A stretch of 64,000 nt of DNA, taken from the NCBI GenBank assembly GCA_041660885.1, contig JBAZVM010000006.1, forward strand, positions 15,063 through 79,062, written 5' to 3'. Of the stretch, positions 227 to 62,731 are shown in pieces. The notes beneath the pieces are model-generated. The model saw nothing but the letters and a program-made list of their open reading frames with translations. It did no database searches and had not been told where the DNA came from. The DNA comes from Patescibacteria group bacterium. GTDB taxonomy: Bacteria > Patescibacteriota > Patescibacteriia > UBA9570 > JAHJKD01. The first letter of the stretch is position 1. Every line of letters starts with the position of its first letter. Both the position numbers and the translations under genes were made by a program.

Positions 227-802
227 ATGAAATCATTAAAAGGAACGCAAACGGAAAAAAATTTATTAAAAGCTTTTGCCGGTGAATCGCAAGCTAGAAT
301 GCGCTATGATTATTTTAGCAGCCAAGCGAAAAAAGAGGGGCTGGAACAAATGGCCGAGATTTTTATGGAAACATCGCTTAACGAGAGGGAACACGCTAAA
401 AGATTCTTTAAATTTTTAGAAGGAAGACCAGTAGAAATTACGGCCACTTATCCCGCGGGGAAAATAAACGACACTCTAAAAAATTTAAAAGCCGCGGCCG
501 AAGGCGAACACGAAGAATGGACTAAGCTTTATCCGGAATTTGAAAAGCAAGCCTTAGCAGATGGATTTAAAGAAATCGCTTCGGCTTTTAAAGAAATCGC
601 GGAAGTGGAAGAAGCGCACGAAAAAAGATACAAAAAATTATACGACAATCTGGAAAGCGGGCAAGTATTCAAGAGAAATAAAACCGTTATTTGGAAGTGC
701 CGAAACTGTGGCTATTTGCACGAAGGAAAAGAAGCACCCAAAGTATGCCCCTCTTGCCTTCATCCGCAAGCTTATTTTCAGATTAAAGAAAATAATTACT
801 AA
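227..802 (+). CDS. rbr: rubrerythrin
   Basis: N-terminal ferritin-like di-iron domain (ExxH motifs: ESQARMRY, NEREHAKRF, EGEHEEW, EEAHEKRY). C-terminal rubredoxin-like CRNCG...CPSC. Confidence 0.9.
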   Translation: MKSLKGTQTEKNLLKAFAGESQARMRYDYFSSQAKKEGLEQMAEIFMETSLNEREHAKRFFKFLEGRPVEITATYPAGKINDTLKNLKAAAEGEHEEWTKLYPEFEKQALADGFKEIASAFKEIAEVEEAHEKRYKKLYDNLESGQVFKRNKTVIWKCRNCGYLHEGKEAPKVCPSCLHPQAYFQIKENNY

Positions 803-808
803 ACTATA

Positions 809-1219
809 ATGTCAAACCTTGAAGGAGCGCCTCAGACCATGGCGCAGGTAGTGGAAGGAGAGATTAAACTTTGGAAAACAGGCGAGGATGAGGACGAAAA
901 ATTAGTAGATTATTTAAATAATTTTCATGCGAATATTCCTTGTCGAGACGGTTATATTATAAATGAGACAATGTTTGGTGTACCTGCCGCAGAAGAGGTG
1001 AAGAAAGAGCGAGAAAGCAGAAGCGGTTTTTATCAAGCTCTGAATGATGCTCTAGAACAATCCGGAGCGAAAGAAGAAATACTAAATTTTGTCGAAGAGT
1101 TACGAGAGAAAAAAAGAAGCATTAGTCTAGGCGATGTCCCAAGAATTCGGGCATTGTTACTTCCGGTTTATGTTAAGATGAGAGAAAGGGGTTTTTCTCA
1201 TCAAGAAATAACAATATAA
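809..1219 (+). CDS. hypothetical protein
   Basis: 136-aa ORF starting directly after rbr. No motif recognised. Confidence 0.45.
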   Translation: MSNLEGAPQTMAQVVEGEIKLWKTGEDEDEKLVDYLNNFHANIPCRDGYIINETMFGVPAAEEVKKERESRSGFYQALNDALEQSGAKEEILNFVEELREKKRSISLGDVPRIRALLLPVYVKMRERGFSHQEITI

Positions 1220-1295
1220 TTACTAACTTTTTTTCTTTACAAAACGCTGTTTTTTTGCTAGACTAATACTGTCTAAATATTAATATTTCAAACAT

Positions 1296-1424
1296 ATGGC
1301 AAACTGCCAAAAGTGCGGGATTCCCTTAGATGAAGAAACTAAGTGTTCCTGCGAGGAAACTACTTGCTCTACCTGCTGCAGTTGCGAGGAAAAATGCGAC
1401 TGCGGATGCAAGAAAGAAAAATAA
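1296..1424 (+). CDS. small cysteine-rich protein (42 aa, 11 Cys), metallothionein-like or zinc-ribbon-like
   Basis: Hand translation: MANCQKCGIPLDEETKCSCEETTCSTCCSCEEKCDCGCKKEK. Below the ORF-track length cut-off. Followed immediately by an intrinsic terminator. Confidence 0.5.
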   Translation: MANCQKCGIPLDEETKCSCEETTCSTCCSCEEKCDCGCKKEK

Positions 1425-1437
1425 ACTTACCTCAGTT

Positions 1438-1466
1438 AAATCCCCTCTGCATAAAGAGGGGATTTT
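1438..1466 (+). terminator. intrinsic terminator hairpin
   Basis: AAATCCCCTCT-GCATAA-AGAGGGGATTT stem-loop with a U-rich tail. Confidence 0.6.
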
Positions 1467-1484
1467 AACATTAATTATATAAAT

Positions 1485-2975
1485 ATGGGAACATTTGATA
1501 ACCCAAAAAATAGATCAAGAAGAGTATATCCAACAGAAGTTAGAGCAGGAAGTGATGTACAAGAACTGAATCCCGCTGATTCCACTCGTAGAAAAAATAC
1601 TGAAGATGACCCCAGCCCTAATCTTACGTCTGACTTAGAAGAGGAAAAAAAGAATCTTGATAAAGAAGACGATTCTGATGAAATTGTAATAGAAAAGTTG
1701 TATCCTGTGCGGCCTTTGTTTGGACAATTTCCTGATTCCAAAGAAACCGAAGGAACAGCTCCGGCGCGAGTACAAGTTCCGCCAGGTAGTATGCGAGAGC
1801 CGGCCCCTCCCATTAAACAAACAACACCACCACCTGCGCCAAAAAAAAGCGGTTTTTTAGCTGGCTTAAAAAGAGGATTAGGCAGAATAGGAGCGGCTTT
1901 AGGTTTATACGCAGCTATAGCGCGAGGAGGCGAAACAGACGAAAAAGTTACGCCCCAACCTTTAGAACCGGAAAACCCCACGGAAATGCCGGCACAATTG
2001 ACTGAAGAAGCTGCAACTACAGCACCGGAAAAAGCACCGGAAGCAGAGCAAGCCAAACCCAGCGAAGAAATAATAAAATTAAGCACCGTGCGCGCGGGTG
2101 AAGGGCCGACTCATGCCATGTTACGCCAAGTTATGGCCAGCCCGGAATCTTTCGGCTTTGACCCAAAAACCATGAACCCTGCGGAATTTGTAAAAAATCT
2201 CGCTATTGAAACCGGGGCGATAACAGTTGATGATTCCGGTAAAATTATCAATGAAACCCGTATAGAAAAACCGGATAGTTTCGCTTTTGTTTTAAATACT
2301 GATAATCAGGGAAAACATTTTACCAATATTTATCCTGTGGAAACCCAAGTAGATAAAGATGGCAAAATTATTTCCAGCAAATTTTCAGAGCAGCCGGTTA
2401 GCGGCCAAGATGTATATGATGTAACTTATCAAGACGAACAAAATAGGCCATCTGCGGAAGAAATTTTAAAACAATTGCATGCCAGTATTGATCGCTCTAA
2501 TTTAGTCAGCCAAATTACTGCGCCAACAGAAAAACCGGCAGTTGCTGAAACTCAATCAGAAAATTCAACGGTTGCCGTGGAAACGGCGCCGGAAAACTCT
2601 ACGTCGGCGGCTATTATTCCCGGCGTTGAAATTGGCGGTACGGTTCATATAAAAAGAAAAGGAGAATTCAAGCCGGTGACGGTTAATAAAATTAATGAAG
2701 ACGGTACTGTTTGCCTGGTAGATAATAAAAACCGGCAGTTGATAAACCAAAAAACGAACGACGCCAATTTTACCTTGGAAGATGTAATTAGAACGCCCCA
2801 TGTGGATGATATCGTAAAAGTTAAAATAAAAGGGGAGATTATTGAAGGAAAAGTATGGAAAGTAAAACCGGATGGAACTTTCGGCATTATGTCTTTGGAT
2901 GAAAAAGAAATAATAAAAACTCCGCTTGGCTCGGAAAATTTTTCTTTGCGTTACTTGGCAATCAACGAAAGCTAG
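1485..2975 (+). CDS. hypothetical protein with a disordered Pro/Glu-rich N-terminal half and two C-terminal SH3/KOW-like repeats
   Basis: 496-aa ORF. Low-complexity PAPPIKQTTPPPAPKK region. Repeated motif KxGxxxxxxVxKxxxDGT near the C-terminus. Confidence 0.55.
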   Translation: MGTFDNPKNRSRRVYPTEVRAGSDVQELNPADSTRRKNTEDDPSPNLTSDLEEEKKNLDKEDDSDEIVIEKLYPVRPLFGQFPDSKETEGTAPARVQVPPGSMREPAPPIKQTTPPPAPKKSGFLAGLKRGLGRIGAALGLYAAIARGGETDEKVTPQPLEPENPTEMPAQLTEEAATTAPEKAPEAEQAKPSEEIIKLSTVRAGEGPTHAMLRQVMASPESFGFDPKTMNPAEFVKNLAIETGAITVDDSGKIINETRIEKPDSFAFVLNTDNQGKHFTNIYPVETQVDKDGKIISSKFSEQPVSGQDVYDVTYQDEQNRPSAEEILKQLHASIDRSNLVSQITAPTEKPAVAETQSENSTVAVETAPENSTSAAIIPGVEIGGTVHIKRKGEFKPVTVNKINEDGTVCLVDNKNRQLINQKTNDANFTLEDVIRTPHVDDIVKVKIKGEIIEGKVWKVKPDGTFGIMSLDEKEIIKTPLGSENFSLRYLAINES

Positions 2976-3526
2976 AGCGCGTGCTCCAATAAAATTTTTA
3001 CACCGATACCGATAAGAATTAAGCCTCCGATCAATTCGGCTTTTTTCCCTATTAAGTCTCCGAATTTTTTCCCCATGTAAACCGCCAGTAAGGAAAGAGT
3101 AAAAGTGATTGCCCCGATAATAGCGGATGCCAGCCAAATATTCATAACTATCAAGGCGAAAGTTATGCCCACCACTAACGCGTCGATACTGGTGGCTATG
3201 GCTAATAGTAAAAGAATTTTTAAAGAGGTAATGTCTGCTTGCTTTTCCTTTTCTATTTTAAAAGATTCAATAATCATTTTAACGCCAATGGCGGTTAAAA
3301 GGAAAAAGGCCACCCAATGATCGAAGCTGGTGATAAATTTTTCCAAACCGGAACCGATCAGCCAGCCGATAATCGGCATGAGCATCTGGAAAAAGCCGAA
3401 GAAAAAAGCAATTTTTATTGCTTTTGAGATTTTAATTTTCGAAACCATAGCACCATAAGCCGCGGCTACGGCCATGGCATCGAAAGAAAGCGAAATCGCG
3501 ATAAGGAAAATATTAAGCAAGGACAT
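2972..3526 (-). CDS. mntP: manganese efflux pump MntP
   Basis: Two DUF204-type repeats (SLSFDAMAVAAAYG, ATSIDALVVGITFAL). C-terminal GKKAELIGGLILIGIGVKIL matches recalled MntP sequence. Confidence 0.88.
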   Translation of the reverse strand: MSLLNIFLIAISLSFDAMAVAAAYGAMVSKIKISKAIKIAFFFGFFQMLMPIIGWLIGSGLEKFITSFDHWVAFFLLTAIGVKMIIESFKIEKEKQADITSLKILLLLAIATSIDALVVGITFALIVMNIWLASAIIGAITFTLSLLAVYMGKKFGDLIGKKAELIGGLILIGIGVKILLEHAL

Positions 3527-3527
3527 A

Positions 3528-4478
3528 TTAATAAAACATTTTACTGGTGGGAAAAAGTATCACGTCTTCCAAGCTGGTTTTATTGGTAAGTAGCATAATC
3601 AAGCGATCCACACCCAAGGCAATGCCGCCGCAAGGAGGCAAGCCCTTTTTTAATCCCGCGATGAATTCCATATCCACGGGATAGGCTTCTTTGCCTAATT
3701 TATTTCTTTCCTCTCTTTCCGCTTCCAAACGAGCAAACTGTTCTTGCCAATCTGTCAGTTCGGAAAAAGCATTGGCCAATTCTATGCCAGCGATATAAAG
3801 CTCAAAACGTTCCGCGAAAAATTCATTTTTCTTTTTAGAGAGCGCGGCCATAGATGCGGGGTAATCCGTTAAAAAAGTCGGTTTATCTTGCCCGAGCTTT
3901 CTTTCTATATCGGTTAAAAATATTTTATAGAATTTTTCCTCAAAATTAGTCTCTTGCATTAATTTTTTCAAATCAGTATTGGCGTATTTTTTAAAGGCCT
4001 GCTCGCAAGTAATATATTCCCAGGGAGGGGTTAAGTTTATTTTTTTGTTTTGATAGTTAAGATAATCTGATTTATTAAATTGCTTATTAATAAAATAAAT
4101 TAAATTTTCCGTGTCTTTGGCGATTCCCATATAATCCGTATTCACGCGATACCATTCCAGAATTTTAAATTCCAGATTATGAATGGGGGAGTTATCTTCT
4201 TCGTTTCTGAAAGCCGAAGTGATTTGAAAGATTTTTTCAAAGCCATCAGCAAGCAAGCGCTTCATGGCGTATTCCGGAGACATAATCAAATACGCCGGCT
4301 TTTTGGCGCCTTTAAAGCTAATCACTTCGGTTTTAAACGGCGTTAAATACGGCTCCATGCTGGGAACGGCTACCAGTTCCGGCGTGGCCACTTCTAGAAA
4401 TTTATTTTTTTTGAACCACTGCCGCGTGAAATCGGTTATGCGGCTGTAATTTTGCGCTATGGTTAATTTTTCTTTCAT
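3528..4478 (-). CDS. epmA: EF-P lysine ligase EpmA/GenX (truncated class II LysRS paralog)
   Basis: Class II aaRS motifs SPEYAMKRLL, FRNEE, ERFELYIAGIELANAF, GIALGVDRLIMLL. About 316 aa, with no anticodon-binding domain. Confidence 0.85.
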   Translation of the reverse strand: MKEKLTIAQNYSRITDFTRQWFKKNKFLEVATPELVAVPSMEPYLTPFKTEVISFKGAKKPAYLIMSPEYAMKRLLADGFEKIFQITSAFRNEEDNSPIHNLEFKILEWYRVNTDYMGIAKDTENLIYFINKQFNKSDYLNYQNKKINLTPPWEYITCEQAFKKYANTDLKKLMQETNFEEKFYKIFLTDIERKLGQDKPTFLTDYPASMAALSKKKNEFFAERFELYIAGIELANAFSELTDWQEQFARLEAEREERNKLGKEAYPVDMEFIAGLKKGLPPCGGIALGVDRLIMLLTNKTSLEDVILFPTSKMFY

Positions 4479-4537
4479 TGTCTTAGCTTATTATATTTTA
4501 TTAAATATTTCAATAGAAATATGGTATAATCAATATT

Positions 4538-6961
4538 ATGAAAAGAATAATTTTTGTTATTGTCTTTAGCGTATTTTTACTATCAAGTAATTACTGCTTG
4601 GCGCAGGAGTTAGATATTGGGGAATATGCTCCGGATGAAGTAATCGTGCAATTTCACGCGATAAATACCGATAAAATAGAAGCAGATAGACAATTATCTA
4701 GTTTTGCCGTGGCCAATGATATGGAATATACGGAATCTTTATTATTTGTTGATGCCGCGGTTTTTAAAATTAATAACGGGGAAACAGTATTGGAAGCTAT
4801 CACGAGGTTAAAAGAGAATCCGGCTGTTTCTTATGTCCAGCCGAATTTTCGCTATCATTCATTATCCATTGATACCAATGATCCTTATAAAGATTTTTTA
4901 TGGGGCTTGGATAACAGCGGGCAGACTATAAACACCGTGGTTGGCACGACTGACGCGGATATAGACGCTCCGGAAGCTTGGGCCATTAACGAAGGCACGA
5001 ATGAAGATGTTATTGTGGCTGTGATAGATATGGGAGTGGGCTATAACCATCCGGATCTAGTTAACCAGATGTGGGATGGCACAAATTGCCTGGATGAAAA
5101 CGGCAATTATTTGGGCGGATGCGTTCATGGCTATGACTACGGATACGACGATAAAGACCCTTTGCCCAATGGTGATTCCCACGGCACGCATGTTTCCGGC
5201 ACCATTGCCGCGGAAAAGAATAACGGCTTTGGCATCGCGGGAGTGGCGCCTCAAGCGACGATCATGGCTCTACAAGCCACGCAATCAGACGGATATTTTT
5301 ATGATACGGAAATAATGAAGTCTATAAATTTTGCCAAGCAAAACGGCGCCAGCGTTATTAATGCCAGCTTTGGCGGCGGATCTTTCGCTTGCTTTTTTAT
5401 TTACGATGAACTGACCTACAACGCCATCGCGGATTTTCCCGGATTGTTCGTGGTCGCCGCGGGAAACGATAGCGCGGAACACGATGGATCCAATTATGTG
5501 GTCGTGCCCGCGGATTACGGGCACCCGAGCGATTGCTGGGACGGGTTAGATAATGTTATTAGCGTGGCCGCGACAGACTCCAACGATGAGCTGGCATCTT
5601 TTTCCGATTATGGCGCAAATTTTATAGATGTCGGCGCACCCGGTGCAGATACTTTAAGCAGCGTCGCGGAAAATTTTTATCTGTATGAAACTTTCGGCAA
5701 TACCGCAACTGGATCTCTTCCTGCTAGCTGGACCAGTTCCGGTGGTAACTGGGGTGCGGGTTCTGTCGCCACTTTTAACAGCGAATCATCTTGGGGCCAG
5801 GTGCTGTACCCAGATGTTAGTGGTGTCGCCACTACCGGCTATTATTACGCGGGAAGCGATAGCAGTTCTATCACTTCGCCGGTTTACGATTTAAGCGCTG
5901 CCAGCACCGAAGCCACTTTTAATTTTCGCGCCAGATGCGACACGGAGTATGTGGAAACGCCGCACGATTATATGGCGCTTTCTTTCAGCGCGGACGGTAT
6001 TACCTTTACCCCCGTGAGCTTGTCTTATTACGGCGATGAAAAAATTGATGAATATATTTTAGACAGCATCGAAGGAGATTATGATTCTGACAATGATACT
6101 TATTCATATTTTGATGATGTGGCTTTAGATGGATATTTTACCGGTAATTTTCAGTTTCGTTTTTCTTGGGTTTCCGATGGCGATGATAATGCGCATCGAG
6201 GATGTGTTGTTGATAATATTTCCGTAAATATAATGGGAGACGGTTCAGCGGACGAGTATGATTATTACAGCGGCACATCCATGGCCGCGCCGCATGTTTC
6301 GGGCTTAGCCGCTTTGTTAATGGGGTACCGCCCCAATTTAACAGCGGCGCAGGTAAAATCCGTAATTTTGGAATCCGGCGACAGTTTGGATTCTTTGTCC
6401 GGCAAAACCGTAACCGGAAAAAGAATCAATGCTTATAACGCCTTGGCCAATTCCGATTTTCCCAATCCGCCTACTGTTAATACTCTTAAAACTCCCACGA
6501 AAAAAGCCACCAAGACTATTTCCGGAACCAAAGACGCCAATACATCCGTATTGTTAAATGGCGAAAGAATTGTTGAAAGAGATAGCGCTGCAACTTGGAG
6601 TTACGAGTTAACCTTAACAGAAGGCGTTAATAATCTTAGCTTTACTTCTAAAAATTCTAGTGGCTTGGAAAGCGCGGCCGCGGAAACCGCGGTTACTCTG
6701 GATACTACCGCGCCAAAGATTCGTTCTAATTATCACACCGGCACGTATCATCATCAGCGCAGAATGAGATTATCCTGCAATGAAGTGTGCACGCTTTATT
6801 ACACGCGCGATAAAACTAAACCCACAAAGCATTCAAAAAAATATAAGCATTCCTTTCTCGTAAAACAAAGCAAGACCATTAAAATCGTAGCATTTGACCA
6901 ATTAAATAATAAATCCGATATTAAAAAAATAATAATTCATATTGACTATATTAAAAAATAA
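4538..6961 (+). CDS. secreted subtilisin-like serine protease (peptidase S8) with a long C-terminal extension
   Basis: Signal peptide. Catalytic motifs VAVIDMGV (Asp), HGTHVSGTIAA (His), GTSMAAPHVSGLAALL (Ser). Confidence 0.9.
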   Translation: MKRIIFVIVFSVFLLSSNYCLAQELDIGEYAPDEVIVQFHAINTDKIEADRQLSSFAVANDMEYTESLLFVDAAVFKINNGETVLEAITRLKENPAVSYVQPNFRYHSLSIDTNDPYKDFLWGLDNSGQTINTVVGTTDADIDAPEAWAINEGTNEDVIVAVIDMGVGYNHPDLVNQMWDGTNCLDENGNYLGGCVHGYDYGYDDKDPLPNGDSHGTHVSGTIAAEKNNGFGIAGVAPQATIMALQATQSDGYFYDTEIMKSINFAKQNGASVINASFGGGSFACFFIYDELTYNAIADFPGLFVVAAGNDSAEHDGSNYVVVPADYGHPSDCWDGLDNVISVAATDSNDELASFSDYGANFIDVGAPGADTLSSVAENFYLYETFGNTATGSLPASWTSSGGNWGAGSVATFNSESSWGQVLYPDVSGVATTGYYYAGSDSSSITSPVYDLSAASTEATFNFRARCDTEYVETPHDYMALSFSADGITFTPVSLSYYGDEKIDEYILDSIEGDYDSDNDTYSYFDDVALDGYFTGNFQFRFSWVSDGDDNAHRGCVVDNISVNIMGDGSADEYDYYSGTSMAAPHVSGLAALLMGYRPNLTAAQVKSVILESGDSLDSLSGKTVTGKRINAYNALANSDFPNPPTVNTLKTPTKKATKTISGTKDANTSVLLNGERIVERDSAATWSYELTLTEGVNNLSFTSKNSSGLESAAAETAVTLDTTAPKIRSNYHTGTYHHQRRMRLSCNEVCTLYYTRDKTKPTKHSKKYKHSFLVKQSKTIKIVAFDQLNNKSDIKKIIIHIDYIKK

Positions 6962-55300: not shown

Positions 55301-55720
55301 ACAGTTCAATTATCACCGGAAGCGCTAAAAGGAGTGGATACGGTTTATTATCATCCCGTGGCTAATTATGGCGGTGTTTGGAATGAGCCGGTTACCGGAA
55401 GAGTGGCTCTTGATTTAAGCCCCTATACGCCGGAACAAAAAATGCAGATTATCCAGCTAACTAGGTTAATGAATGTGGCGGCTTTTATGGGAGAAAATCC
55501 AGAGCAACATGGATTAGGCGTAGCTCCGGATGTGGAAACATTTGTCGCTTTTGTTAATAAAGGCGAAGCTTTAAGCTGGCTGTATGATAGTAAAGTGGAT
55601 GGCGTGGCAATAGACATGGCAGACCGTGCCTTGCCGAAAACTATGAATCCACAAGAATGGCAGGATTATATCAGTTCTAATTTATTGCATACCCCTGATC
55701 AAAGAATGGCTGCGAAGTAG
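52373..55720 (+). CDS. very large hypothetical protein (1115 aa) with a polyproline tract and a central Gly/Ala-rich TM region
   Basis: Long ORF. PPPPGAMPPPPPSPAAPPAPPSGPP tract. Hydrophobic region IAVSAGLMGIGLAGGFAGGAIGASAVGAAAAGG. Confidence 0.6.
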   Translation: MPDATNQQEQQNQPKTPEKRKPSIWEGIKIFFRRGEQIQEEGAKKVDAVPEEIRPEVQQVVLESTDRIVRYLEQAEREIQEAMSAGIKTPSESIKQEIVLKYKIDQLSAQDASALLKKLELVKPAVDAGQINIRNIDDLNNNAVIPQNAGAREYHLSPEEVRKLSEQRDAVDVVGSAIYKPDDQVGPPIINPEDLIVSTDPAKRKAMPNINSLDPNLLTIQDMSPKKRRGPDAIPPGAGNLDAKLVDGTLLAIGGLVRLENDNVNTWQITEIQSGRVGVVNINNPKEKEWLKRGNDGKVDEIERTLTKDEIDALYPPAPVAASSGPTPPNPATPPPPGAMPPPPPSPAAPPAPPSGPPTRGRLGSLWDRVRGRGDSALTPEDKEKALLAKMSLREFIYSPDDKEAMIAKENAISTARGLYAREGNDANKNDYRLKINEYRAAIKEAINRKDSILTPEKKKQFLDELYILTVVDEATALYEAQQQAQRESQPDGIKKKGKELWARFTNHIDNRLNWYRGLSWKKKIAVSAGLMGIGLAGGFAGGAIGASAVGAAAAGGYALRLLGATVMAKTGARLGSDYARKRQQRRDLGDIQQTPESAEYLAETDLAKIESLDNALNDKLSSLLQNQARDKRNRLLAATGGAVLGAGASIGIGQVGRYLSHDIVGYFQGEAPTAEAPVEPAGTANTAEAMPPTSNVAPEAPSTEVIRPVATHYYTNEIEGTTGRDYESKSLLQLIEAHKTDLGYDSNTDGDPDKWVRHEFRTAMAELKGKGQWYDLTHQGDRVVLQVNPDGSHEYSFQNDSAIAPGEHLPQHAPATVAESAEQPALEPTKPEVIPEEHSLSTEEARVLHDMQHSHEDTMKPMKHMQASRTFERNWDTLQPLAESLGQTKEQFKDALLGHLDKGEDISDIYSHVAPTAEASVSTGVSADGVGESGGGGAATADETAKAEPQQEAAGIDSHADTHISAADTLDISSDTVQLSPEALKGVDTVYYHPVANYGGVWNEPVTGRVALDLSPYTPEQKMQIIQLTRLMNVAAFMGENPEQHGLGVAPDVETFVAFVNKGEALSWLYDSKVDGVAIDMADRALPKTMNPQEWQDYISSNLLHTPDQRMAAK

Positions 55721-55731
55721 CAGATCAAATT

Positions 55732-55756
55732 AAGCCCCGAAGCAATTCGGGGCTTT
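55732..55756 (+). terminator. intrinsic terminator with GNRA loop
   Basis: AAGCCCCGAA-GCAA-TTCGGGGCTT followed by a T-rich tail. Confidence 0.75.
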
Positions 55757-55774
55757 AATATGGGCTTTAGTATT

Positions 55775-55824
55775 CAAAGATATCCACAGTATAAAATTGC
55801 CATTTTAATATAGAGTGATACTAT
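55775..55824 (+). promoter_or_regulatory. 14-mer CAAAGATATCCACA box plus promoter upstream of the tRNA-like gene
   Basis: Box at 55775-55788. TTGCCA at 55797-55802, 16-nt spacer, TACTAT at 55819-55824. The same box-plus-promoter layout recurs at 56113-56164. Confidence 0.45.
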
Positions 55825-55832
55825 TTCTTTAG

Positions 55833-55875
55833 AGGTACTGTTGCTCGTATACTACGGGCAAAAGTGACTTGTCAA
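55833..55875 (-). repeat. inverted, degenerate copy of the tRNA-like 5-prime half plus a perfect 13-bp inverted repeat
   Basis: The reverse complement of 55833-55859 (GCCCGTAGTATACGAGCAACAGTACCT) matches 55927-55955 at 23 of 29 aligned positions. AGTGACTTGTCAA (55863-55875) is the exact reverse complement of 55956-55968. Confidence 0.6.
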
Positions 55876-55924
55876 TATATAGGCGTCCCAAATAGGGCGC
55901 TTTTATATTTATATGGTGGATCCC

Positions 55925-55999
55925 GGGCCCGTAGTGTAATGGCAGCACAGTACCTTTGACAAGTCACTAGTGCGGGTTCAATTCCCGTCGGGTCCACCA
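55925..55999 (+). tRNA. tRNA-like gene with encoded CCA but no canonical anticodon stem (possible pseudo-tRNA or recombination-scarred tRNA)
   Basis: 75 nt in total. Acceptor stem GGGCCCG/CGGGTCC. D arm GTGT-AATGGCA-GCAC. T arm GCGGG-TTCAATT-CCCGT. Discriminator A followed by CCA. The 17-nt anticodon-arm slot GTACCTTTGACAAGTCA cannot form a 5-bp stem. Confidence 0.6.
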
Positions 56000-56032
56000 C
56001 CTAAAAAACAACATTATTTAAATAACATTAAT

Positions 56033-56105
56033 AAACCCCAATGCCCTGTGCTCCGCCGTAGCGTAGCCGCTAGGCTGCGCAGAGGCGAGAATTTGGGGTT
56101 TATTT
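56033..56105 (+). terminator. long compound hairpin with U-rich tail downstream of the tRNA-like gene
   Basis: Outer stem AAACCCCAAT / ATTTGGGGTTT. Inner GC-rich hairpin GCGTAGCC-GCTA-GGCTGCGC (56061-56080). Followed by TTTATTT. Confidence 0.55.
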
Positions 56106-56112
56106 GTACCCC

Positions 56113-56164
56113 CAAAGATATCCACACCATAGGTATTGACAATATCCTCGCTCGGGTGTATTAT
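56113..56164 (+). promoter_or_regulatory. CAAAGATATCCACA box plus near-consensus sigma70 promoter driving the island leader
   Basis: Box at 56113-56126. TTGACA at 56136-56141, exact 17-nt spacer, TATTAT at 56159-56164. Confidence 0.65.
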
Positions 56165-56167
56165 AGC

Positions 56168-56896
56168 TGGTTCTTTTAAAATCAATTTTTGCCCTTACCG
56201 TTCAGCAAGCAATTGCTGGCCGGGTTATCCGTAACAAAAAAGCCTCAATCTAACCTTGAATTTGCAGGAGTGTTATACGGATGGAGGTTTTTTTGTTGCG
56301 GATATAAAGGGCTGCAACATACAGCGTCCGAAGGCCTCTGCCCCGCCTTGGCGGGGAAGAGGTCCGCGGTTCGCTGATATCCCTTCGAAGCTCGAGTGAA
56401 ACGAGAGCGAAGGAGGATGAATGAAGCAAATTGATATGCTCTTTACAATAGATTTATAAGCCACGCGGGAAACCAGGTTAAGGGCAGCAGGAATGTTATA
56501 TATAGGCACTTGCCTTCGAAAGCTCGTCCTATTGGTGGTGATATTATTATCGCTATTAATAGATCGAGCTTTTGGGCAAGTGCGCATAGCATTTCTACTG
56601 TCCTTGACCTGGCCCGCGTCCCTGTGAAGTTCCGAAAGGAACTGAACAGGACGGCGCGCCAGAACCCACTGAAGTGAACCCGAATGGGTACTTCACTGAA
56701 GGGGACCCCGATGGGCCCTTCAGGGAGATCGGAAACGATCTTCACGGGGATCCGAAAGGGTCTCTTGAGAGATTCGAAAGAATTTCTCGGGTATCCTGGC
56801 ATAGGGCCGGGTCAGTCATGGATAACGAGACATCACCGAGTGCGACCGCAACACAGGGCCGCACTTTTCCAGCAACTCCAAACGAGGTTAACAGCC
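56168..56896 (+). ncRNA. about 0.7 kb highly structured leader or large ncRNA candidate (many GNRA-capped hairpins)
   Basis: No credible ORF. Hairpins: 56203-56218 (GCAA loop), long-range helix 56226-56246 with 56283-56307, 56335-56362, 56382-56412, helix 56506-56527 with 56564-56584, 56621-56650 (CCTGT-GA-AGTTCC-GAAA-GGAACT-GA-ACAGG), 56696-56723, and three back-to-back GAAA hairpins at 56726-56741, 56746-56765 and 56767-56788. Confidence 0.55.
56840..56868 (+). terminator. possible attenuator hairpin just upstream of the cassette-1 RBS
   Basis: GTGCGACC-GCAACACAG-GGCCGCAC followed by TTTT. GAGG RBS at 56884-56887. Confidence 0.35.
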
Positions 56897-57640
56897 ATGA
56901 TGACCCTTCTGGCCCTTCTGACCCTGAACGCCTTCGCCGACGAGCCCGTCATCGACCGCATCATCATCCGCTCGTTCCCGACCGAGGCGGCCCCGATCGA
57001 TCCGTGCACGGACCCCTGCGCCAAGCCGGAGCCCGTCGTCAAGTACGTCGACACGGGCACGAACGACCACGACCAGGCGATTGCCGAGAGCGACAACGCC
57101 GCCGACGTCGCGATCGCCGAGAGTGCCGACGGCCGCGACATCGCCATCGCCACGGTCGAGTCCACAACCACGCTCGGTCTCGCCACCGAGGAGACCAAGC
57201 AGCAGGCGGCGCTGAGCCCGACGATCGAAGACGTCGCCCGAGCCGCTGCAGCTGGTGGGGCGCCGCTCTACATCAACATGGAGACCGGCATCATCAGCAC
57301 CGGCCGGCCCATGTACACCTCCGAGATCGTCGCCACGCAGGAAGGGAACCCCGCGGACCCGAAGACCAGCCTCACCTACGCCACCGGGCGCAAGGTGACC
57401 TCCTCGCAGCTCCGCGGCCTCCAGCCCCTCGACATCCGCCACAACGGCCACCTCGACTGGGCCCCGGCGATCGCGGCCACCGTCGTTGGATTCGCCGCGG
57501 GCTTCATCGCCGGCGGTGACTACCAGCACATCAACGACGGGCAGACCGACACCCTCTACGCGAACTACGGGCTCCGGTCCGTCCTCGCGGGCGCGGGCGT
57601 CGGCGCGGCCACCGGCGGGCTGGCCCTGTTCACCTTCTAG
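56897..57640 (+). CDS. high-GC cassette 1: secreted/membrane protein (247 aa) with Gly-zipper-like C-terminal helices
   Basis: GAGG RBS 9 nt upstream. Signal peptide MMTLLALLTLNAFA-DEP. GC3-rich codons. Repeats D(x)AIAES. C-terminal GFAAGFIAGG and AGAGVGAATGGLALFTF. Confidence 0.7.
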   Translation: MMTLLALLTLNAFADEPVIDRIIIRSFPTEAAPIDPCTDPCAKPEPVVKYVDTGTNDHDQAIAESDNAADVAIAESADGRDIAIATVESTTTLGLATEETKQQAALSPTIEDVARAAAAGGAPLYINMETGIISTGRPMYTSEIVATQEGNPADPKTSLTYATGRKVTSSQLRGLQPLDIRHNGHLDWAPAIAATVVGFAAGFIAGGDYQHINDGQTDTLYANYGLRSVLAGAGVGAATGGLALFTF

Positions 57641-57825
57641 CCTCTGGCTGGAGGTGAGCCCCGATCTTGGCCACGGGTGAGTTGGCCAAAAAACACTGCC
57701 CCGGGTTCCTTCACGAAGGGACCTGGGCAACTGGGAGGAGAAGTGAGATCAATCAAGACACAGCATCTTCTCTTCCCTTCCAGTTCAGTGCTTCTTAGCA
57801 AAGCTAGGGAGCAGTGAGAATGGAA
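57641..57825 (+). ncRNA. cassette 3-prime structured module, copy 1 (pseudoknot, mid hairpin, SD-like hairpin HP1, hairpin HP2)
   Basis: Pseudoknot: CCCG-ATCTTGGCCA-CGGG (57660-57677) with loop TTGGCCA pairing to TGGCCAA (57683-57689). Mid hairpin 57700-57727. HP1 57729-57785, with core GGGAGGAGAAG / CTTCTCTTCCC. HP2 57789-57813. Confidence 0.6.
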
Positions 57826-58021
57826 TTCGTTCTTTACAATAAAATCCGATTCAATAGCCCATTTGCAGGATAACCGGGCTGCGAAATATGACTGCATCAT
57901 AAATGATGTATCCATATTCCGTGGCCTGGCCTGCTAGGGTGCCTAAGTTCTTGTGCAGAGGGATTGTCCCACCGCGCATTTACCCCGGCTCCTTTTGGGC
58001 TGGGCCAGAACACGGTAACAC

Positions 58022-58042
58022 GGCCCTACTATCTATAGGGCC
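58022..58042 (+). promoter_or_regulatory. leader hairpin immediately upstream of the cassette-2 RBS
   Basis: GGCCCTA-CTATCTA-TAGGGCC, followed by a GGAG RBS at 58049-58052. Confidence 0.4.
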
Positions 58043-58058
58043 ATCACTGGAGAACGCC

Positions 58059-58502
<444 letters not shown>

Positions 58503-58685
58503 TCTCGGTGCCAGCTAGTCCGATCTTGATCCCGGACGATAATTGTGGATCACACCTACAGCCCCGAGTCCTAGATAGGACATCGGGCAACTGGGAGGAG
58601 AAGTGAGATCATACATGTTACAGCATCTTCTCTTCCCTTCCAGTTCAGTGCTTCTTAGCAAAGCTAGGGAGCAGTGAGAATGGAA
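58503..58685 (+). ncRNA. cassette 3-prime structured module, copy 2
   Basis: Pseudoknot: GTCCG-ATCTTGATCC-CGGAC (58518-58537) with loop TGATCC pairing to GGATCA (58547-58552). Mid hairpin 58563-58587. HP1 58589-58645. HP2 58649-58673. The last 100 nt equal copy 1 except for a 10-nt loop segment. Confidence 0.6.
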
Positions 58686-58698
58686 AAGGGGAGTAACT

Positions 58699-58782
58699 GA
58701 ATCACAGATTACGCAGATAAATATAGATAACACAGATATATTTTTAAGAGTAATCAGTATTAATCTGTGTAATCTGTGATTC
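58699..58782. mobile_element. CACAGAT-type inverted-repeat element A (MITE-like, no ORF)
   Basis: Left arm GAATCACAGATTACGCAGATAAA. The right arm reverse complement is GAATCACAGATTACACAGATTAA. 38-bp AT-rich centre. Confidence 0.55.
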
Positions 58783-58841
58783 AACGCCCTATGAGAAAAT
58801 CGTCGTACCTTTAAATTTATTATCAACCCCTTAACGGGTTT

Positions 58842-58897
58842 CAGGTCATGGAAGATGCGCGTTATATGAAAATATAACGATCGTCTCCCATGACCTG
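58842..58897 (+). promoter_or_regulatory. 56-nt extended hairpin with GAAA tetraloop in the cassette-3 leader
   Basis: 26-bp stem (3 mismatches, 1 GU pair) capped by GAAA. Its 3-prime arm overlaps the conserved GACCTGGCCCGCG motif. Confidence 0.55.
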
Positions 58898-58981
58898 GCC
58901 CGCGCCAGAGCTCGCACAAGGAGCATCCTGGCCAAGAAAGGGTCGGGTCAGTCTTGGGGTCACCCAGAACAGGAGTATGCC

Positions 58982-59296
58982 GTGAACATCAACTCGTGGT
59001 GGAAGTGGCTGTTGACCGTCGTCGTCACCCTCGTGGTCTTCGGACTCGGCATCGTCGTCGGGCACTACGCGTGGACTCCGTCCAACGCGCCCGTCGTCGT
59101 CGCGCAGTCCCAGACCTACCCCGACTTCCAGCAGCTCGCCGCGCTTGCCGCGAGCGGGTACGAGGTGGAGGTGGTCTACAACACCCCCGCCACCGTCCCC
59201 GTCGAGGTGCCGGTCTACGTGCCCGTCGAGGTCGAGCGCATCCCGGCCGAGGAGCCGAGCAAGGGCTCCAAGGCGTCGAAGGCCCCCGCGCGCTAG
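58982..59296 (+). CDS. high-GC cassette 3: small N-terminally anchored protein (104 aa)
   Basis: AGGAG RBS 6 nt upstream of the GTG start. TM helix WKWLLTVVVTLVVFGLGIVVG. Val/Pro/Glu-rich tail. Confidence 0.6.
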   Translation: MNINSWWKWLLTVVVTLVVFGLGIVVGHYAWTPSNAPVVVAQSQTYPDFQQLAALAASGYEVEVVYNTPATVPVEVPVYVPVEVERIPAEEPSKGSKASKAPAR

Positions 59297-59470
59297 CAGT
59301 AGCGCATGGGATAGTCCGACTCTGACCCCGGACGAAAATTGTGGGTCAAAGCTACGAAAGGGTACCCTTCGGGGGACCCGCGGGAGGGAACTGAGATATG
59401 ACTGCAACAGCATGTTCTCTCCCTTCCGCAAAAGTGTTCGTGAGGTTTCTACATAAATAAACCTCGAGAA
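59297..59470 (+). ncRNA. cassette 3-prime structured module, copy 3 (diverged, with compensatory changes)
   Basis: Pseudoknot: GTCCG-ACTCTGACCC-CGGAC (59314-59333) with loop TGACCC pairing to GGGTCA (59343-59348). Mid hairpin with UUCG loop 59360-59379. HP1 GGGAGGGAAC / GTTCTCTCCC 59382-59423. Terminal hairpin 59442-59465. Confidence 0.6.
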
Positions 59471-59486
59471 TAGTTAGCGGAATAAA

Positions 59487-59597
59487 GGTATCACAGACGG
59501 AATCACAGATTACACAGATAAATAAAAAATAAACACAGATAAGAAAACATCTGTGCAATCTGTGATCAATGTATTTATCTGCGGCATCCGTGATTCC
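59487..59597. mobile_element. CACAGAT-type inverted-repeat element B (MITE-like, no ORF)
   Basis: Outer inverted repeat 59499-59524 versus 59572-59597 (22 of 26 match). Nested inner CACAGAT/ATCTGTG repeats. Confidence 0.55.
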
Positions 59598-59648
59598 CTT
59601 ACTCCTTGCTGGACATATTAATTATTTCAGGTATTATAATAAACAAGG

Positions 59649-59675
59649 CGGCTCCCAATGCGGAGGCGTTTTTTT
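59649..59675 (+). terminator. intrinsic terminator
   Basis: CGGCTCC-CAATGC-GGAGGCG stem followed by T7. Confidence 0.55.
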
Positions 59676-59691
59676 ATTTATGGCGATGAAT

Positions 59692-60169
59692 GAATCACAA
59701 ATCACACAGATAAATCTCCGGATGGTATCGATAATTAATTTATTTAATATAAATATATGGAAGAAAATAATAAGGAAATAACATATAAAGTTATAGGTGT
59801 TGCTTATGAAGTACATAATAATTTGGGACCGGGGTTTCAAGAGGTTATTTATCAAAGGGCGCTGGCGCGAGAATTTATGGCAAAAAATATTAATTTCGCG
59901 CGTGAAGAATGGATTCCGGTATACTATAAAAATACCGTAATTGGAAAAAGAAGAGTGGATTTTACACTGTCAAAAATCATCGTCGAAATAAAAGCAAGAG
60001 CTGAAATTAAACCTAAAGATTACATTCAAACTTTATCATATTTAAAAGCGACTAAATTTAAAATAGCTCTGCTATTAAATTTTGGTACGAAACAACTACA
60101 AGTCAAACGATTTATTAATTAATCTAGTTATCTGTGTTTATCTGCATTCATTTGTGTCATCTGTGATTC
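59692..60169. mobile_element. CACAGAT-type inverted-repeat element C carrying the GxxExxY gene
   Basis: Left arm GAATCACAAATCACACAGATAAAT (59692-59715). The right arm reverse complement is GAATCACAGATGACACAAAT (60150-60169). Confidence 0.55.
59757..60122 (+). CDS. GxxExxY family protein (PD-(D/E)XK nuclease-like)
   Basis: 121 aa. Eponymous motif GFQEVIY. Overall pattern YxVIGxAxEVHxxLGxGFxExxYxxAL...RxDFxxxxxIVEIKA...LNFG matches recalled family members. Confidence 0.8.
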   Translation: MEENNKEITYKVIGVAYEVHNNLGPGFQEVIYQRALAREFMAKNINFAREEWIPVYYKNTVIGKRRVDFTLSKIIVEIKARAEIKPKDYIQTLSYLKATKFKIALLLNFGTKQLQVKRFIN

Positions 60170-60187
60170 AGCTACTCCCTTTTGTTC

Positions 60188-60216
60188 TTGACATTTTCCT
60201 CTTCGCATGTTACGTT
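60188..60216 (+). promoter_or_regulatory. candidate promoter for cassette 4
   Basis: TTGACA at 60188-60193, 17-nt spacer, TACGTT at 60211-60216. Confidence 0.45.
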
Positions 60217-60404
60217 ATTTCGTTCTCCTGCCCATTTCCCATGGGGATTTTTGCGGCGAATTTTTGTGTTTATTTTAGCCGTATAAACCCCCAAAGGACA
60301 ATGGGGAGTTTCTCAAGCCGTTACCACAGGGGTGGAACGGCGATGTGCGACAGGAAGAGAGAACCCGCCCTCCCACGATAGTGGGACGGCATAGTGAGAA
60401 GACA

Positions 60405-61661
<1,257 letters not shown>

Positions 61662-61750
61662 GTTTTTTTGGCAGCGCCCCGCTATGGCGAGGTGCCTGCC
61701 CCCGGGAGGAGAAGTGAGATTGTCAGCTACTGCATCTTCTCTTCCCTCCC
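61662..61750 (+). ncRNA. cassette 3-prime module, copy 4 (a different upstream hairpin, then HP1)
   Basis: GGCAG(CGCC-CCGCTAT-GGCG)AGGTGCCTGCC hairpin. HP1 GGGAGGAGAAG / CTTCTCTTCCC at 61704-61746, with loop TGAGAT-TGTCAGCTAC-TGCAT. Confidence 0.5.
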
Positions 61751-61876
61751 GACGTATTATCCTTTAATCCTTAGAGGCTAGTATATTGGGAGAACAAGCC
61801 CGTGTTCTCCATGTACTCCGTGTCTTCGTGATTCAGTTCCGGAATCATTGTAACTTCGTAAAAAATATGTCATAAT

Positions 61877-62731
61877 TTGGCTATGTTAAGAAATTGTTTC
61901 TATTATTTTTTTGGTATTATAATTTTATTCATTAATAAAATAAGATACGGCTTTTTTGGATATAAAAAACCGCGAGATTTTCCGGTTTCGGCTATGGAAA
62001 AGGCCATTAAATACGATCAGTCCGTGGTTGATGGCTGGCTGATAAATCTAAAACAATACGAGGGCATGGATATCAAAGATAAAACCGTGCTGGAATTAGG
62101 CCCGGGAGCCGATTTAGGCATTGCCCTGCTTTTATTAAACAAAGGCGCGAAAAAATATACGGCTTTGGATGTAAATAATTTGGTTGAAACCGTGCCCGAA
62201 TTATTCTATGAAAAATTATTGGAAAGCATCAATAATAAGGAATTAATCAGCGCTTTAAAAGATAAAAATAAAATAAATTATATTTGCGATAAAAATTTCA
62301 ATATTTCAAAAATAAATATTGAAGATAGCGCAATAATATTCAGCCAAGCCGCGTTTGAACATTTCAGCGATCCGGAAAAAGCCTTAGAGCAATTAAGCCA
62401 AACAGCAAAATCTGGCGCTATTCTGATAGCCGAGGTGGATTTGCAAACGCACACTAAGTGGCTGCGCGAAAAAGATCCTTTAAACATTTATCGTTATGCC
62501 AATAATATATATAATTTATTCCATTTTTCCGGAATACCAAACAGAATCCGTCCGCAGGAATATAAAAAAATATTGGAAAAAAATAATTGGAAGAATGTAG
62601 TGATTAAACCGAAGAATATCTTAAGCGGCCAAGAGCTAAAAAAAATAAGCCCCAGGCTGGCTGAACCGTTTAATCAGGAATCAGCTCAAATGCAAACGCT
62701 CAGTTTTATTTTATGCGCCACCAAAAAGTAA
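61877..62731 (+). CDS. class I SAM-dependent methyltransferase
   Basis: Motif I VLELGPGADLG. Rossmann-like layout. The probable start is ATG 61883. Confidence 0.75.
   Translation: MAMLRNCFYYFFGIIILFINKIRYGFFGYKKPRDFPVSAMEKAIKYDQSVVDGWLINLKQYEGMDIKDKTVLELGPGADLGIALLLLNKGAKKYTALDVNNLVETVPELFYEKLLESINNKELISALKDKNKINYICDKNFNISKINIEDSAIIFSQAAFEHFSDPEKALEQLSQTAKSGAILIAEVDLQTHTKWLREKDPLNIYRYANNIYNLFHFSGIPNRIRPQEYKKILEKNNWKNVVIKPKNILSGQELKKISPRLAEPFNQESAQMQTLSFILCATKK

Follow-up and report, generated by a model that had tools for sequence, protein, structure and literature searches.

The window analysed here, 64,000 nucleotides within an 87-kb contig of a Patescibacteria metagenome-assembled genome, contains a GC-rich island at about 56.0–61.8 kb, in which four open reading frames (ORF1 to ORF4) lie on the + strand, each behind a non-coding leader. 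Leaders 1 to 3 are almost certainly paralogous and derive from one ancestral leader. We lean towards reading them as mRNA leaders composed of a hairpin (P0), a helix (P1) and a block in front of the ribosome-binding site (RBS), which would act as sense-strand RNA in 5′-end protection, processing or ribosome access. The initial annotation had described short motifs in these leaders as independent signals presented in differing helices. The motifs are instead the conserved, paired strands of the RNA helices of one homologous leader architecture. The broader statement that the leaders of cassettes 1–3 share conserved elements with conserved secondary structure is borne out.

Motif 1, GACCTGGCCCGCG, occurs exactly twice in the 64 kb, at 56606–56618 and 58892–58904, with a variant, GGCCTGGCCTGC, at 57923–57934, as had been noted. 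It forms the 3′ strand of the P0 base. The motif 2 pattern, AGGGYCGGGTCAGTC, likewise has just two copies in the window (56803–56817 and 58939–58953), and 1 of 100 shuffles gave two or more. A further string, ATCCTGGC, is the 3′ strand of P1 and pairs with GCCAGA located after motif 1. The string CCAGAACASG was correctly placed in leaders 2 and 3, and is at chance level when taken alone, its count being reached in 11 of 100 shuffles. Its distance from the Shine-Dalgarno sequence (SD) in leader 2 is about 35 nt, so it does not stand shortly before the RBS as had been claimed.

The leaders were compared by gap-tolerant local alignment against dinucleotide shuffles, 200 per pair. The similarity of leaders 1 and 3 gave z = 5.5 and that of leaders 2 and 3 z = 3.0, scores reached by none of the shuffles; leaders 1 and 2 gave z = 2.7, with 1 of 200 shuffles reaching the score. 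Leader 4 is not homologous to the others (z = −0.7 to −1.2 against each of leaders 1–3, 157–177 of 200 shuffles reaching the score). The architecture was inherited by duplication, after which hairpins were inserted or deleted. Leader 1 grows by duplication of hairpin units: a 27-nt tandem duplication at 56667–56722 (2.1 copies, 79% match) makes two tetraloop-capped hairpins within its P1.

P0 follows one general plan in leaders 1–3, with a conserved GC-rich base and a variable, AT-rich tip of unrelated sequence, on stems of 26–75 bp. The base consists of an outer stem of 4–7 bp, a bulge of 2–4 A/U nucleotides on the 5′ strand, and then a CCRGG/CCUGG stem. The inner stem has changed in a compensatory manner, from A-U to U-A between leaders 1 and 3, and from U-A to C-G and A-U to C-G between leaders 1 and 2. 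In leader 1, P0 comprises 58 Watson-Crick pairs, 9 G-U pairs and 1 C-A. The 56-nt hairpin first noticed in leader 3 has 26-nt arms (58842–58867 and 58872–58897), 85% complementary, and a GAAA loop as described; it extends to 58835–58902 with a folding energy of −41.8 kcal/mol. The GAAA cap is not conserved: the P0 tips of leaders 1, 2 and 3 are UUAU, UAAA and GAAA, so the cap is incidental. The inner 4-bp stem of P1 is ACCC/GGGU in leader 1 and GCUC/GAGC in leader 3, which requires two double compensatory changes. P0 and P1 are very probably real RNA helices.

The folding evidence points to leaders that act as sense-strand RNA. The leaders and 3′ modules fold with z-scores of −3.6 to −16.6 overall: −13.5 for leader 1 P0, −11.1 for the 3′ part of leader 1, −16.6 for the whole 731-nt leader 1, −5.1 for leader 2 and −4.9 for leader 3. 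The coding regions fold ordinarily (z of +1.4 to −2.4), and selection for structure across them was rejected on these scores. Within the 64 kb, the island alone has long hairpins that are not of low complexity. Folding of the sense strand is more favourable than that of the antisense strand in leader 1 P0 (−102 vs −74 kcal/mol), the 3′ part of leader 1 (−144 vs −122) and 3′ module 1 (−84 vs −65); in leaders 2 and 3 the two strands differ by less than 1 kcal/mol. Strand-neutral decay of a DNA palindrome would yield G-U and A-C in similar numbers. Six P0 hairpins contain 21 G-U pairs against 5 A-C or C-A single mismatches, a count somewhat biased because the fold algorithm favours G-U. The stability of the sense strand and the excess of G-U argue for RNA rather than DNA.

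The motif 2 core, AGGGYCGGGTCAG (AGGGYCGGGUCAG), is complementary to motif 1, with duplex energies of −29 kcal/mol in leader 1, −28 in leader 3 and −19 for the equivalent in leader 2. The sole difference between leaders 1 and 3 in the motif 2 block, C or U, swaps a G-C pair for G-U. Without the 5′ arm of P0, the fold of lowest energy is the one in which motif 1 pairs with motif 2; bases next to this pairing, in leaders 2 and 3 only (UUCC and UCUCC), are then paired with the SD GGAG. When the full-length leaders are folded, motif 2 is mostly unpaired at minimum energy. The suggestion that AGGGYCGGGTCAG is displayed as the loop of a stem is weak: the CAT/ATG stem in leader 1 is only 3 bp and the display does not appear in the minimum-energy folds.

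Relatives of the island were reached through its proteins. ORF2 and ORF4 have in common a Cys-rich C-terminal domain (58242–58502 and 61437–61661) of about 75–85 amino acids (aa) with the motif C.L[FY]AAG..C....[ST]YG[ST]. A profile of this domain, searched against 1.84 billion representative proteins, found just two true full-length relatives, P0007 and P0009, both singleton clusters and each encoded by a GC-rich ORF in an AT-rich contig. The contig of P0007, L125, is AT-rich, 6.4 kb long and syntenic with the window. L125 carries a GC-rich ORF3-like gene (80–352) with a 3′ module, and a GC-rich ORF4 orthologue (4273–5412; 49% identity, BLASTP), accompanied by a 3′ module as well as a promoter and a long hairpin; the same O-antigen-ligase-like gene comes next (57% identity). 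L126, which carries P0009, has two further GC-rich ORFs, each with a hairpin of at least 25 bp upstream. Hairpins of at least 25 bp stand before most GC-rich ORFs in L125 and L126, and before nearly every GC-rich ORF across the three genomes. Cassette 4 and its relatives in L125 and L126 carry TTGACA promoters. A synteny search through the O-antigen-ligase-like neighbour returned five loci of at most 42% identity, none with a GC-rich island.

Table 1. Features of the GC-rich island (coordinates of the window, unless L125 is named).
Feature	Position	Strand	Description
Strongest sigma-70-like island promoter	56136–56164	+	TTGACA-17-TATTAT, 11/12; candidate start of the cassette 1–3 transcript
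Upstream structured region	56191–56415	+	Three hairpins; 3′ end and spacer like the end of 3′ module 1 and its spacer
TCTTTACAATA block	56440–56450	+	−10-like TACAAT, 13 nt before leader 1 P0; identical copy at 57831–57841 before leader 2 P0
Leader 1 P0	56463–56619	+	About 67 pairs; ACGCGGG/CCCGCGU, AAA bulge, CCAGGUUAAGG/CCUUGACCUGG, AT-rich tip UUAU
Leader 1 P1	56658–56800	+	GCCAG-A-ACCC … GGGU-AUC-CUGGC; encloses five tetraloop-capped hairpins, mostly GAAA
Leader 1 motif 2, AGGGCCGGGUCAGUCAUGG	56803–56821	+	Complementary to motif 1 (duplex energy in text)
ORF1	56897–57640	+	247 aa, signal peptide, GC3 0.93, orphan protein
3′ module 1	57696–57825	+	Hairpins a, b and c; b is GGGAGGAGAAG/CUUCUCUUCCC
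Leader 2 P0	57865–57934	+	GCAGG/CCUGC, AUAA bulge, CCGGGCUGCG/CGUGGCCUGG, tip UAAA; the motif 1 variant is the 3′ base strand
Leader 2 distal part	58005–58052	+	CCAGAACACG at 58005–58014; AUAGGGCCAUCACUGGAG at 58035–58052, a degenerate motif 2 equivalent running into the SD GGAG
ORF2	58059–58502	+	147-aa lipoprotein, TD-repeat linker, Cys-rich C-terminal domain as in ORF4, GC3 0.91
3′ module 2	58556–58685		
Leader 3 P0	58835–58902	+	CGGGU/GCCCG, UU bulge, CAGGUCAUGG/CCAUGACCUG, tip GAAA; encloses 58842–58897; identical in contigs L132 and L133
Leader 3 P1	58904–58932	+	GCCAG-A-GCUC [GCACAAG] GAGC-AUC-CUGGC
Leader 3 distal part	58932–58981	+	Motif 2 at 58939–58957 flanked by CCAAGA/UCUUGG; CCAGAACAGGAG with SD at 58971–58975; GTG at 58982
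ORF3	58982–59296	+	104 aa, N-terminal membrane helix, GTG start at 58982, GC3 0.97
3′ module, diverged	59357–59482		
Candidate terminator of the cassette 1–3 transcript	59647–59675	+	First hairpin with U7 after cassette 3; read by eye, not in the scan list
Leader 4	60188–60404	+	TTGACA promoter at 60188, own long hairpin at 60230–60306; not homologous to leaders 1–3
ORF4	60405–61661	+	418-aa lipoprotein, Cu-binding_MopE repeats (E = 3e-32), GC3 0.93
3′ module	61670–61795		
3′ modules of L125	353–480 and 5420–5545 (L125)		

A related 3′ module follows all four GC-rich ORFs, as had been proposed; on the 5′ side leader 4 is unlike leaders 1–3, so that the claim of related signals on both sides of every cassette goes too far. 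Over 101 nt, modules 1 and 2 share 95% identity, and six modules retain hairpin b, in which three pairs have changed in a compensatory way. Between module 4 and its counterpart in L125 the nucleotide identity is about 85%; three hairpins are conserved between them, and the 27-mer GGTGCCTGCCCCCGGGAGGAGAAGTGA is the same in both. The 3′ module is the most conserved part of the unit, the ORF4 protein being 49–60% identical and the leader unalignable. The 3′ module has no match in Rfam, and specific 3′ module patterns gave no matches in the genome, metagenome (two patterns) and viral contig collections.

The mechanism can be outlined on the positions of the predicted signals. The only strong predicted promoter lies at 56136–56164, and a terminator scan of the + strand found no terminator-like site between 56164 and 59647. 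Cassettes 1–3 would then form one transcript from 56136 to about 59675, in which P0 and the 3′ modules are intercistronic. The hairpin and U-run at its candidate end have an equivalent at the same place in L125, with a compensating change. P0 and the 3′ modules do not behave as intrinsic terminators: P0 is followed by GCCCGCG.../UAGGG..., the modules have no U run, and the scan lists none there. Alternatively, a weak promoter might lie 11–16 nt upstream of each P0, where −10-like hexamers are found (TACAAT at 56444 and 57835, TATTAT at 58818) with no convincing −35; the TCTTTACAATA block could serve as such a promoter. Either route would place P0 at or near the 5′ end of the mature mRNA.

There P0 may protect or define the 5′ end, for example as an RNase III-type, double-strand-specific site, while the 3′ modules would protect the 3′ ends. 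Sites of the RNase III type need a double-stranded RNA stretch of about 20 bp or longer, in which an internal loop often guides the cut. The P0 hairpins of leaders 1–3 fit this size with 25–67 pairs and a 2–4 nt bulge near the base, a property that is necessary and not sufficient. End protection or processing is offered as a tentative function of the leaders. With P0 closed, the region of motif 2 and the SD would be free. Upon loss of the P0 5′ strand, motif 1 could pair with motif 2 and form a 5′-terminal helix, or mask the SD through the neighbouring bases in leaders 2 and 3. That this alternative pairing acts as a switch is doubtful.

Several points weigh against leaders that act in this way. 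The three leaders are paralogues and do not count as independent cases. In every case P0 far exceeds the alternative pairing in stability, so that a trigger is required. The complementarity of motifs 1 and 2 is modest when compared with shuffled P0 3′ strands (z = −2.3, −1.9 and −1.7), and complementarity of this type fails in leader 4, in cassette 4 of L125 and in cassette 1 of L126. Neither motif 1 nor motif 2 occurs in L125 or L126, even with 2 mismatches allowed. The two orthologous versions of leader 4 align only at the TTGACA promoter, so the leaders evolve fast. Nor is P0 5′-terminal in every case: in L126 it begins about 90 nt after the predicted start. Finally, the proposed starts of transcription, cleavage events and effects on translation are predictions from sequence.

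In the sequences searched, the motifs were not enriched beyond this locus, an outcome that the initial annotation had named as counting against its reading. Within the 64 kb, both motifs and the core of the 3′ module are confined to 56.6–61.8 kb, unlike the dispersed repetitive extragenic palindromes (REP), bacterial interspersed mosaic elements (BIME) and miniature inverted-repeat transposable elements (MITE). The combined 5′ motif had no match in viral contigs; the genome and metagenome collections were scanned only for the 3′ module and synteny. Viral-contig matches to short exact strings (4 for GGGAGGAGAAGTGAGAT, more than 120 for AGGGYCGGGTCAGTC) were rejected as chance, as none carries the partner sequence.

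Such confinement would suit the view that the shared strings are decaying, functionless remnants of duplication that have merely not yet mutated, and the units are clearly duplicated, with nearly identical modules 1 and 2 and the spacer TCTTTACAATA in two intergenic regions. Of the earlier proviso that the strings might be duplication remnants without structural conservation, the first half stands, as they do stem from a duplicated segment; the structure, however, is conserved. The surviving blocks are non-random and correspond to helix strands, substitutions are compensatory or form G-U pairs, and a long hairpin is kept in every leader even with unrelated sequence (leader 4, L125 and L126). 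Together with the extreme folding z-scores, this makes mere remnants unlikely. It is very unlikely that the leaders serve as a platform to which a trans-acting regulator (protein, small RNA or ligand) binds, with motif 2 single-stranded while P0 is closed and the tetraloop hairpins recognised. The unpaired state of motif 2 in the full-length folds and the tandem tetraloop-capped units of leader 1, some with GAAA, would agree with such a platform. However, no candidate partner was identified, no riboswitch or protein-binding family of Rfam was matched, the hairpin array is present in one leader only, and the motif is not conserved in related loci. An assembly chimera or contamination, by which GC-rich foreign DNA was joined to an AT-rich contig, might explain the GC jump from about 38% to about 68%, but is refuted. 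Window 58394–60730 is 100% identical, across several AT/GC junctions, in four contigs from four other datasets (Logan, ENA, JGI; different samples: SRR18595301, ERZ27249449, IMG 3300014208 and SRR6484324), and the arrangement recurs at the syntenic position of a second genome, L125. The four identical independent assemblies indicate that neither the composition jumps nor the leader 3 hairpin are assembly artefacts.

Action at the DNA level has also to be considered, in which the hairpins and 3′ modules are folded single-strand or site-specific recombination sites that shuffle the cassettes, in the manner of integron-like arrays, of attC clusters without an integrase (CALIN) or of the recombination sites in variable surface-protein loci. 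The cassette-like array and the conserved base, asymmetric bulge and variable tip of P0 recall attC design. The parts are mosaic, in that ORF2 and ORF4 share a domain behind unrelated leaders and the unrelated ORFs 1–3 share a leader; modules 1 and 2 are almost the same, and the neighbourhood differs between genomes, with toxin-antitoxin genes in L125 and a GxxExxY element in the window. The hairpin bases nevertheless lack RYYYAAC/GTTRRRY boxes: those of P0 are ACGCGGG/CCCGCGT, GCAGG/CCTGC and CGGGT/GCCCG, without AAC...GTT, and AAC...GTT in hairpin b is found in module copies 1 and 2 only, not in 3 and 4. An attC site lies at the 3′ end of its cassette and abuts the next one, whereas P0 lies 5′ of the ORFs, and a 3′ module of 130–190 nt and AT-rich spacers stand between it and the previous ORF. 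An integrase nearby defines a complete integron, although a CALIN needs none; the ORFs of at least 150 aa scanned at 1–35 and 41–62.7 kb include no integrase, transposase or reverse transcriptase. The G-U excess and strand asymmetry fit sense-strand RNA, and what is conserved and syntenic between genomes, rather than variable, is the GC-rich units. Recombination sites are therefore quite unlikely, and sense-strand mRNA leaders are preferred.

The window bulk is about 36–45% GC and carries housekeeping genes, which include release factor 1, ribosomal protein L10, Lgt, DsbA-like thioredoxins, PFOR, aldolase and NiFe hydrogenase. At the island the composition steps up as given above. The GC content at third codon positions (GC3) of ORF1–4 is 0.91–0.97, against 0.22–0.40 in neighbouring host genes. 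As read from the translations, all four ORFs encode exported or membrane proteins; signal peptides are not conserved among these surface-protein genes. ORF1–3 and the GxxExxY protein correspond to NCBI MFA6027931-34. Protein searches with ORF1 and the ORF2 C-terminal domain match only themselves. No match was obtained for ORF1 by tblastn against phages and plasmids, for leader 1 by blastn against phages, or for intergenic region 1 by blastn against plasmids.

The island lies directly downstream of a tRNA-like gene at 55925–55999 (47 bits), whose anticodon arm is unpaired and contains TTGACA; ARAGORN names no anticodon. The 37 nt at 55839–55875 are an inverted copy of the tRNA 5′ half, so that the region can form a long hairpin instead of a cloverleaf. 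An integrated island targeted to the tRNA was rejected, since no integrase was found in the ORFs scanned, the tRNA 3′ end is not repeated, and the island is present in the second genome. The stretch of about 290 nt from the strong promoter to leader 1 P0 is also structured (z = −6.5), with one hairpin of about 47 pairs (21 contiguous) and an AT-rich tip. Region 56191–56460 may encode a small RNA of its own or be what is left of a lost unit.

Inverted repeats of 25 nt, TGAATCACAAATCACACAGATAAAT ... ATCTGTGATTCA, stand on both sides of the GxxExxY / PDDEXK_3 gene (59757–60122) within 59691–60170. L125 lacks this gene at the corresponding position, so the gene looks like an insertion. Palindromic copies of the repeat with no gene inside follow cassettes 2 (58698–58783) and 3 (59499–59597), with a half copy after cassette 4 (about 61828); the equivalent repeats of L125 carry CACGAA in place of CACAGAT. 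The AT-rich GAATCACAGAT palindromes were rejected as attC sites, because one copy encloses a whole gene, which gives them the look of terminal inverted repeats or MITE-like elements. At 59610–59675 a promoter-like TGGACA-16-TATTAT (10/12) is followed within about 10 nt by a hairpin and U7, which predicts a transcript of only about 35–40 nt; the L125 equivalent of the hairpin and U run lies at about 3950–4010. In L125, the AT-rich stretch between the GC-rich units (713–3841) encodes HicB/HicA and four consecutive HEPN/nucleotidyltransferase toxin-antitoxin pairs, each with a similar T-rich tract and a promoter-like TGGTAG..TATAA box upstream.

The GC-rich state looks old. The island counterparts in L125 have GC3 of 0.88–0.89, against 0.47 in the host gene, and the ORF4 orthologues keep GC3 of 0.89–0.93 in both lineages. 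At four-fold sites of identical residues, third-base identity is 0.58 for the ORF4 pair and 0.47 for the host gene, where composition alone would give 0.46 and 0.30, respectively. With such near-saturated and similar synonymous divergence, the GC-rich gene looks as old as the neighbouring host gene.

The persistence of a high-GC3 gene set in an AT-rich genome is a more surprising point than the leaders, which by themselves would be a small, locus-restricted family of structured mRNA leaders not described in any RNA family library. The leaders and 3′ modules might conceivably form the non-coding half of a dedicated Patescibacteria expression system, in which surface genes, each between a long 5′ hairpin and a 3′ module of three hairpins, are held for long evolutionary periods at GC3 of about 0.9 in a genome of about 38% GC, although we regard this as improbable. 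If it were so, composition and RNA brackets would be selected together. The purpose could be resistance of the mRNA to AU-directed endoribonucleases, including the HicA and HEPN toxins encoded adjacent in L125, or else a separate regime of processing and stability. A non-adaptive alternative could be locally GC-biased gene conversion in a recombination hot spot, which would be equally unusual for bacteria. No force that maintains the high GC3 was identified. Patescibacteria, or the candidate phyla radiation (CPR), are uncultivated episymbionts whose surface proteins presumably mediate contact with the host, and to our knowledge almost nothing is known of their post-transcriptional gene control. 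If the hairpins define mRNA ends or gate translation, they would offer a testable handle on gene regulation in this group and would bear on why the gene set resists compositional amelioration.

Among described RNA families no match was found. In a covariance search with Rfam 15, only the tRNA at 55925–55996 reaches the gathering threshold, and at E up to 5 the region 55700–62000 yields only far-sub-threshold matches to miRNA-type hairpins; a ribozyme or intron in leader 1 was rejected for want of any Rfam signal. The literature search found nothing relevant. Comparison with known systems therefore concerns design rather than sequence.

The surface lipoprotein cluster of a reduced-genome bacterium, with shared non-coding 5′ sequence and differing coding parts, is reminiscent of the Mycoplasma vsp, vlp and vsa loci. 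Unlike in those loci, the signal peptides of the window are not conserved, no adjacent recombinase or invertible promoter was seen, and the genes look compositionally foreign. With attC arrays and CALINs, whose cassettes are mostly promoterless, the island shares tandem small genes of the same orientation for secreted or unknown proteins, hairpins of conserved base and variable tip, and toxin-antitoxin genes nearby. It differs from them by the lack of the R/L box consensus and of an integrase in the scanned ORFs, by a hairpin 5′ of the ORF, by units with their own leaders and apparently promoters, by sense G-U pairs, and by being syntenic and conserved.

Mutually exclusive helices that mask the RBS are known from erm-type leaders, RNA thermometers and RNase III-dependent activation as in adhE. 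As in such leaders, a middle strand, motif 1, has two possible partners: the 5′ arm of P0 upstream, or motif 2 downstream, to which leaders 2 and 3 add SD-adjacent bases. Unlike in them, the upstream helix of the window is overwhelmingly more stable, no leader peptide is present, and the statistics of downstream pairing are modest. Hairpins that are processed by RNase III or stabilise 5′ ends are reportedly found at the phage T7 early mRNA sites, in the E. coli rpsO-pnp leader and in the ompA 5′ untranslated region. The window hairpins resemble these in their imperfect stems of at least 20 bp, in an asymmetric internal loop near the base, in an intercistronic or 5′-end position, in their pairing with structured 3′ ends and in action as sense RNA. 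The stems in the window are much longer and more variable, have no sequence relation to those examples, and are tied to one compositionally aberrant gene family. By analogy, the element would work most like the RNase III-type intercistronic or 5′ stabiliser hairpins combined with the SD-masking leaders.

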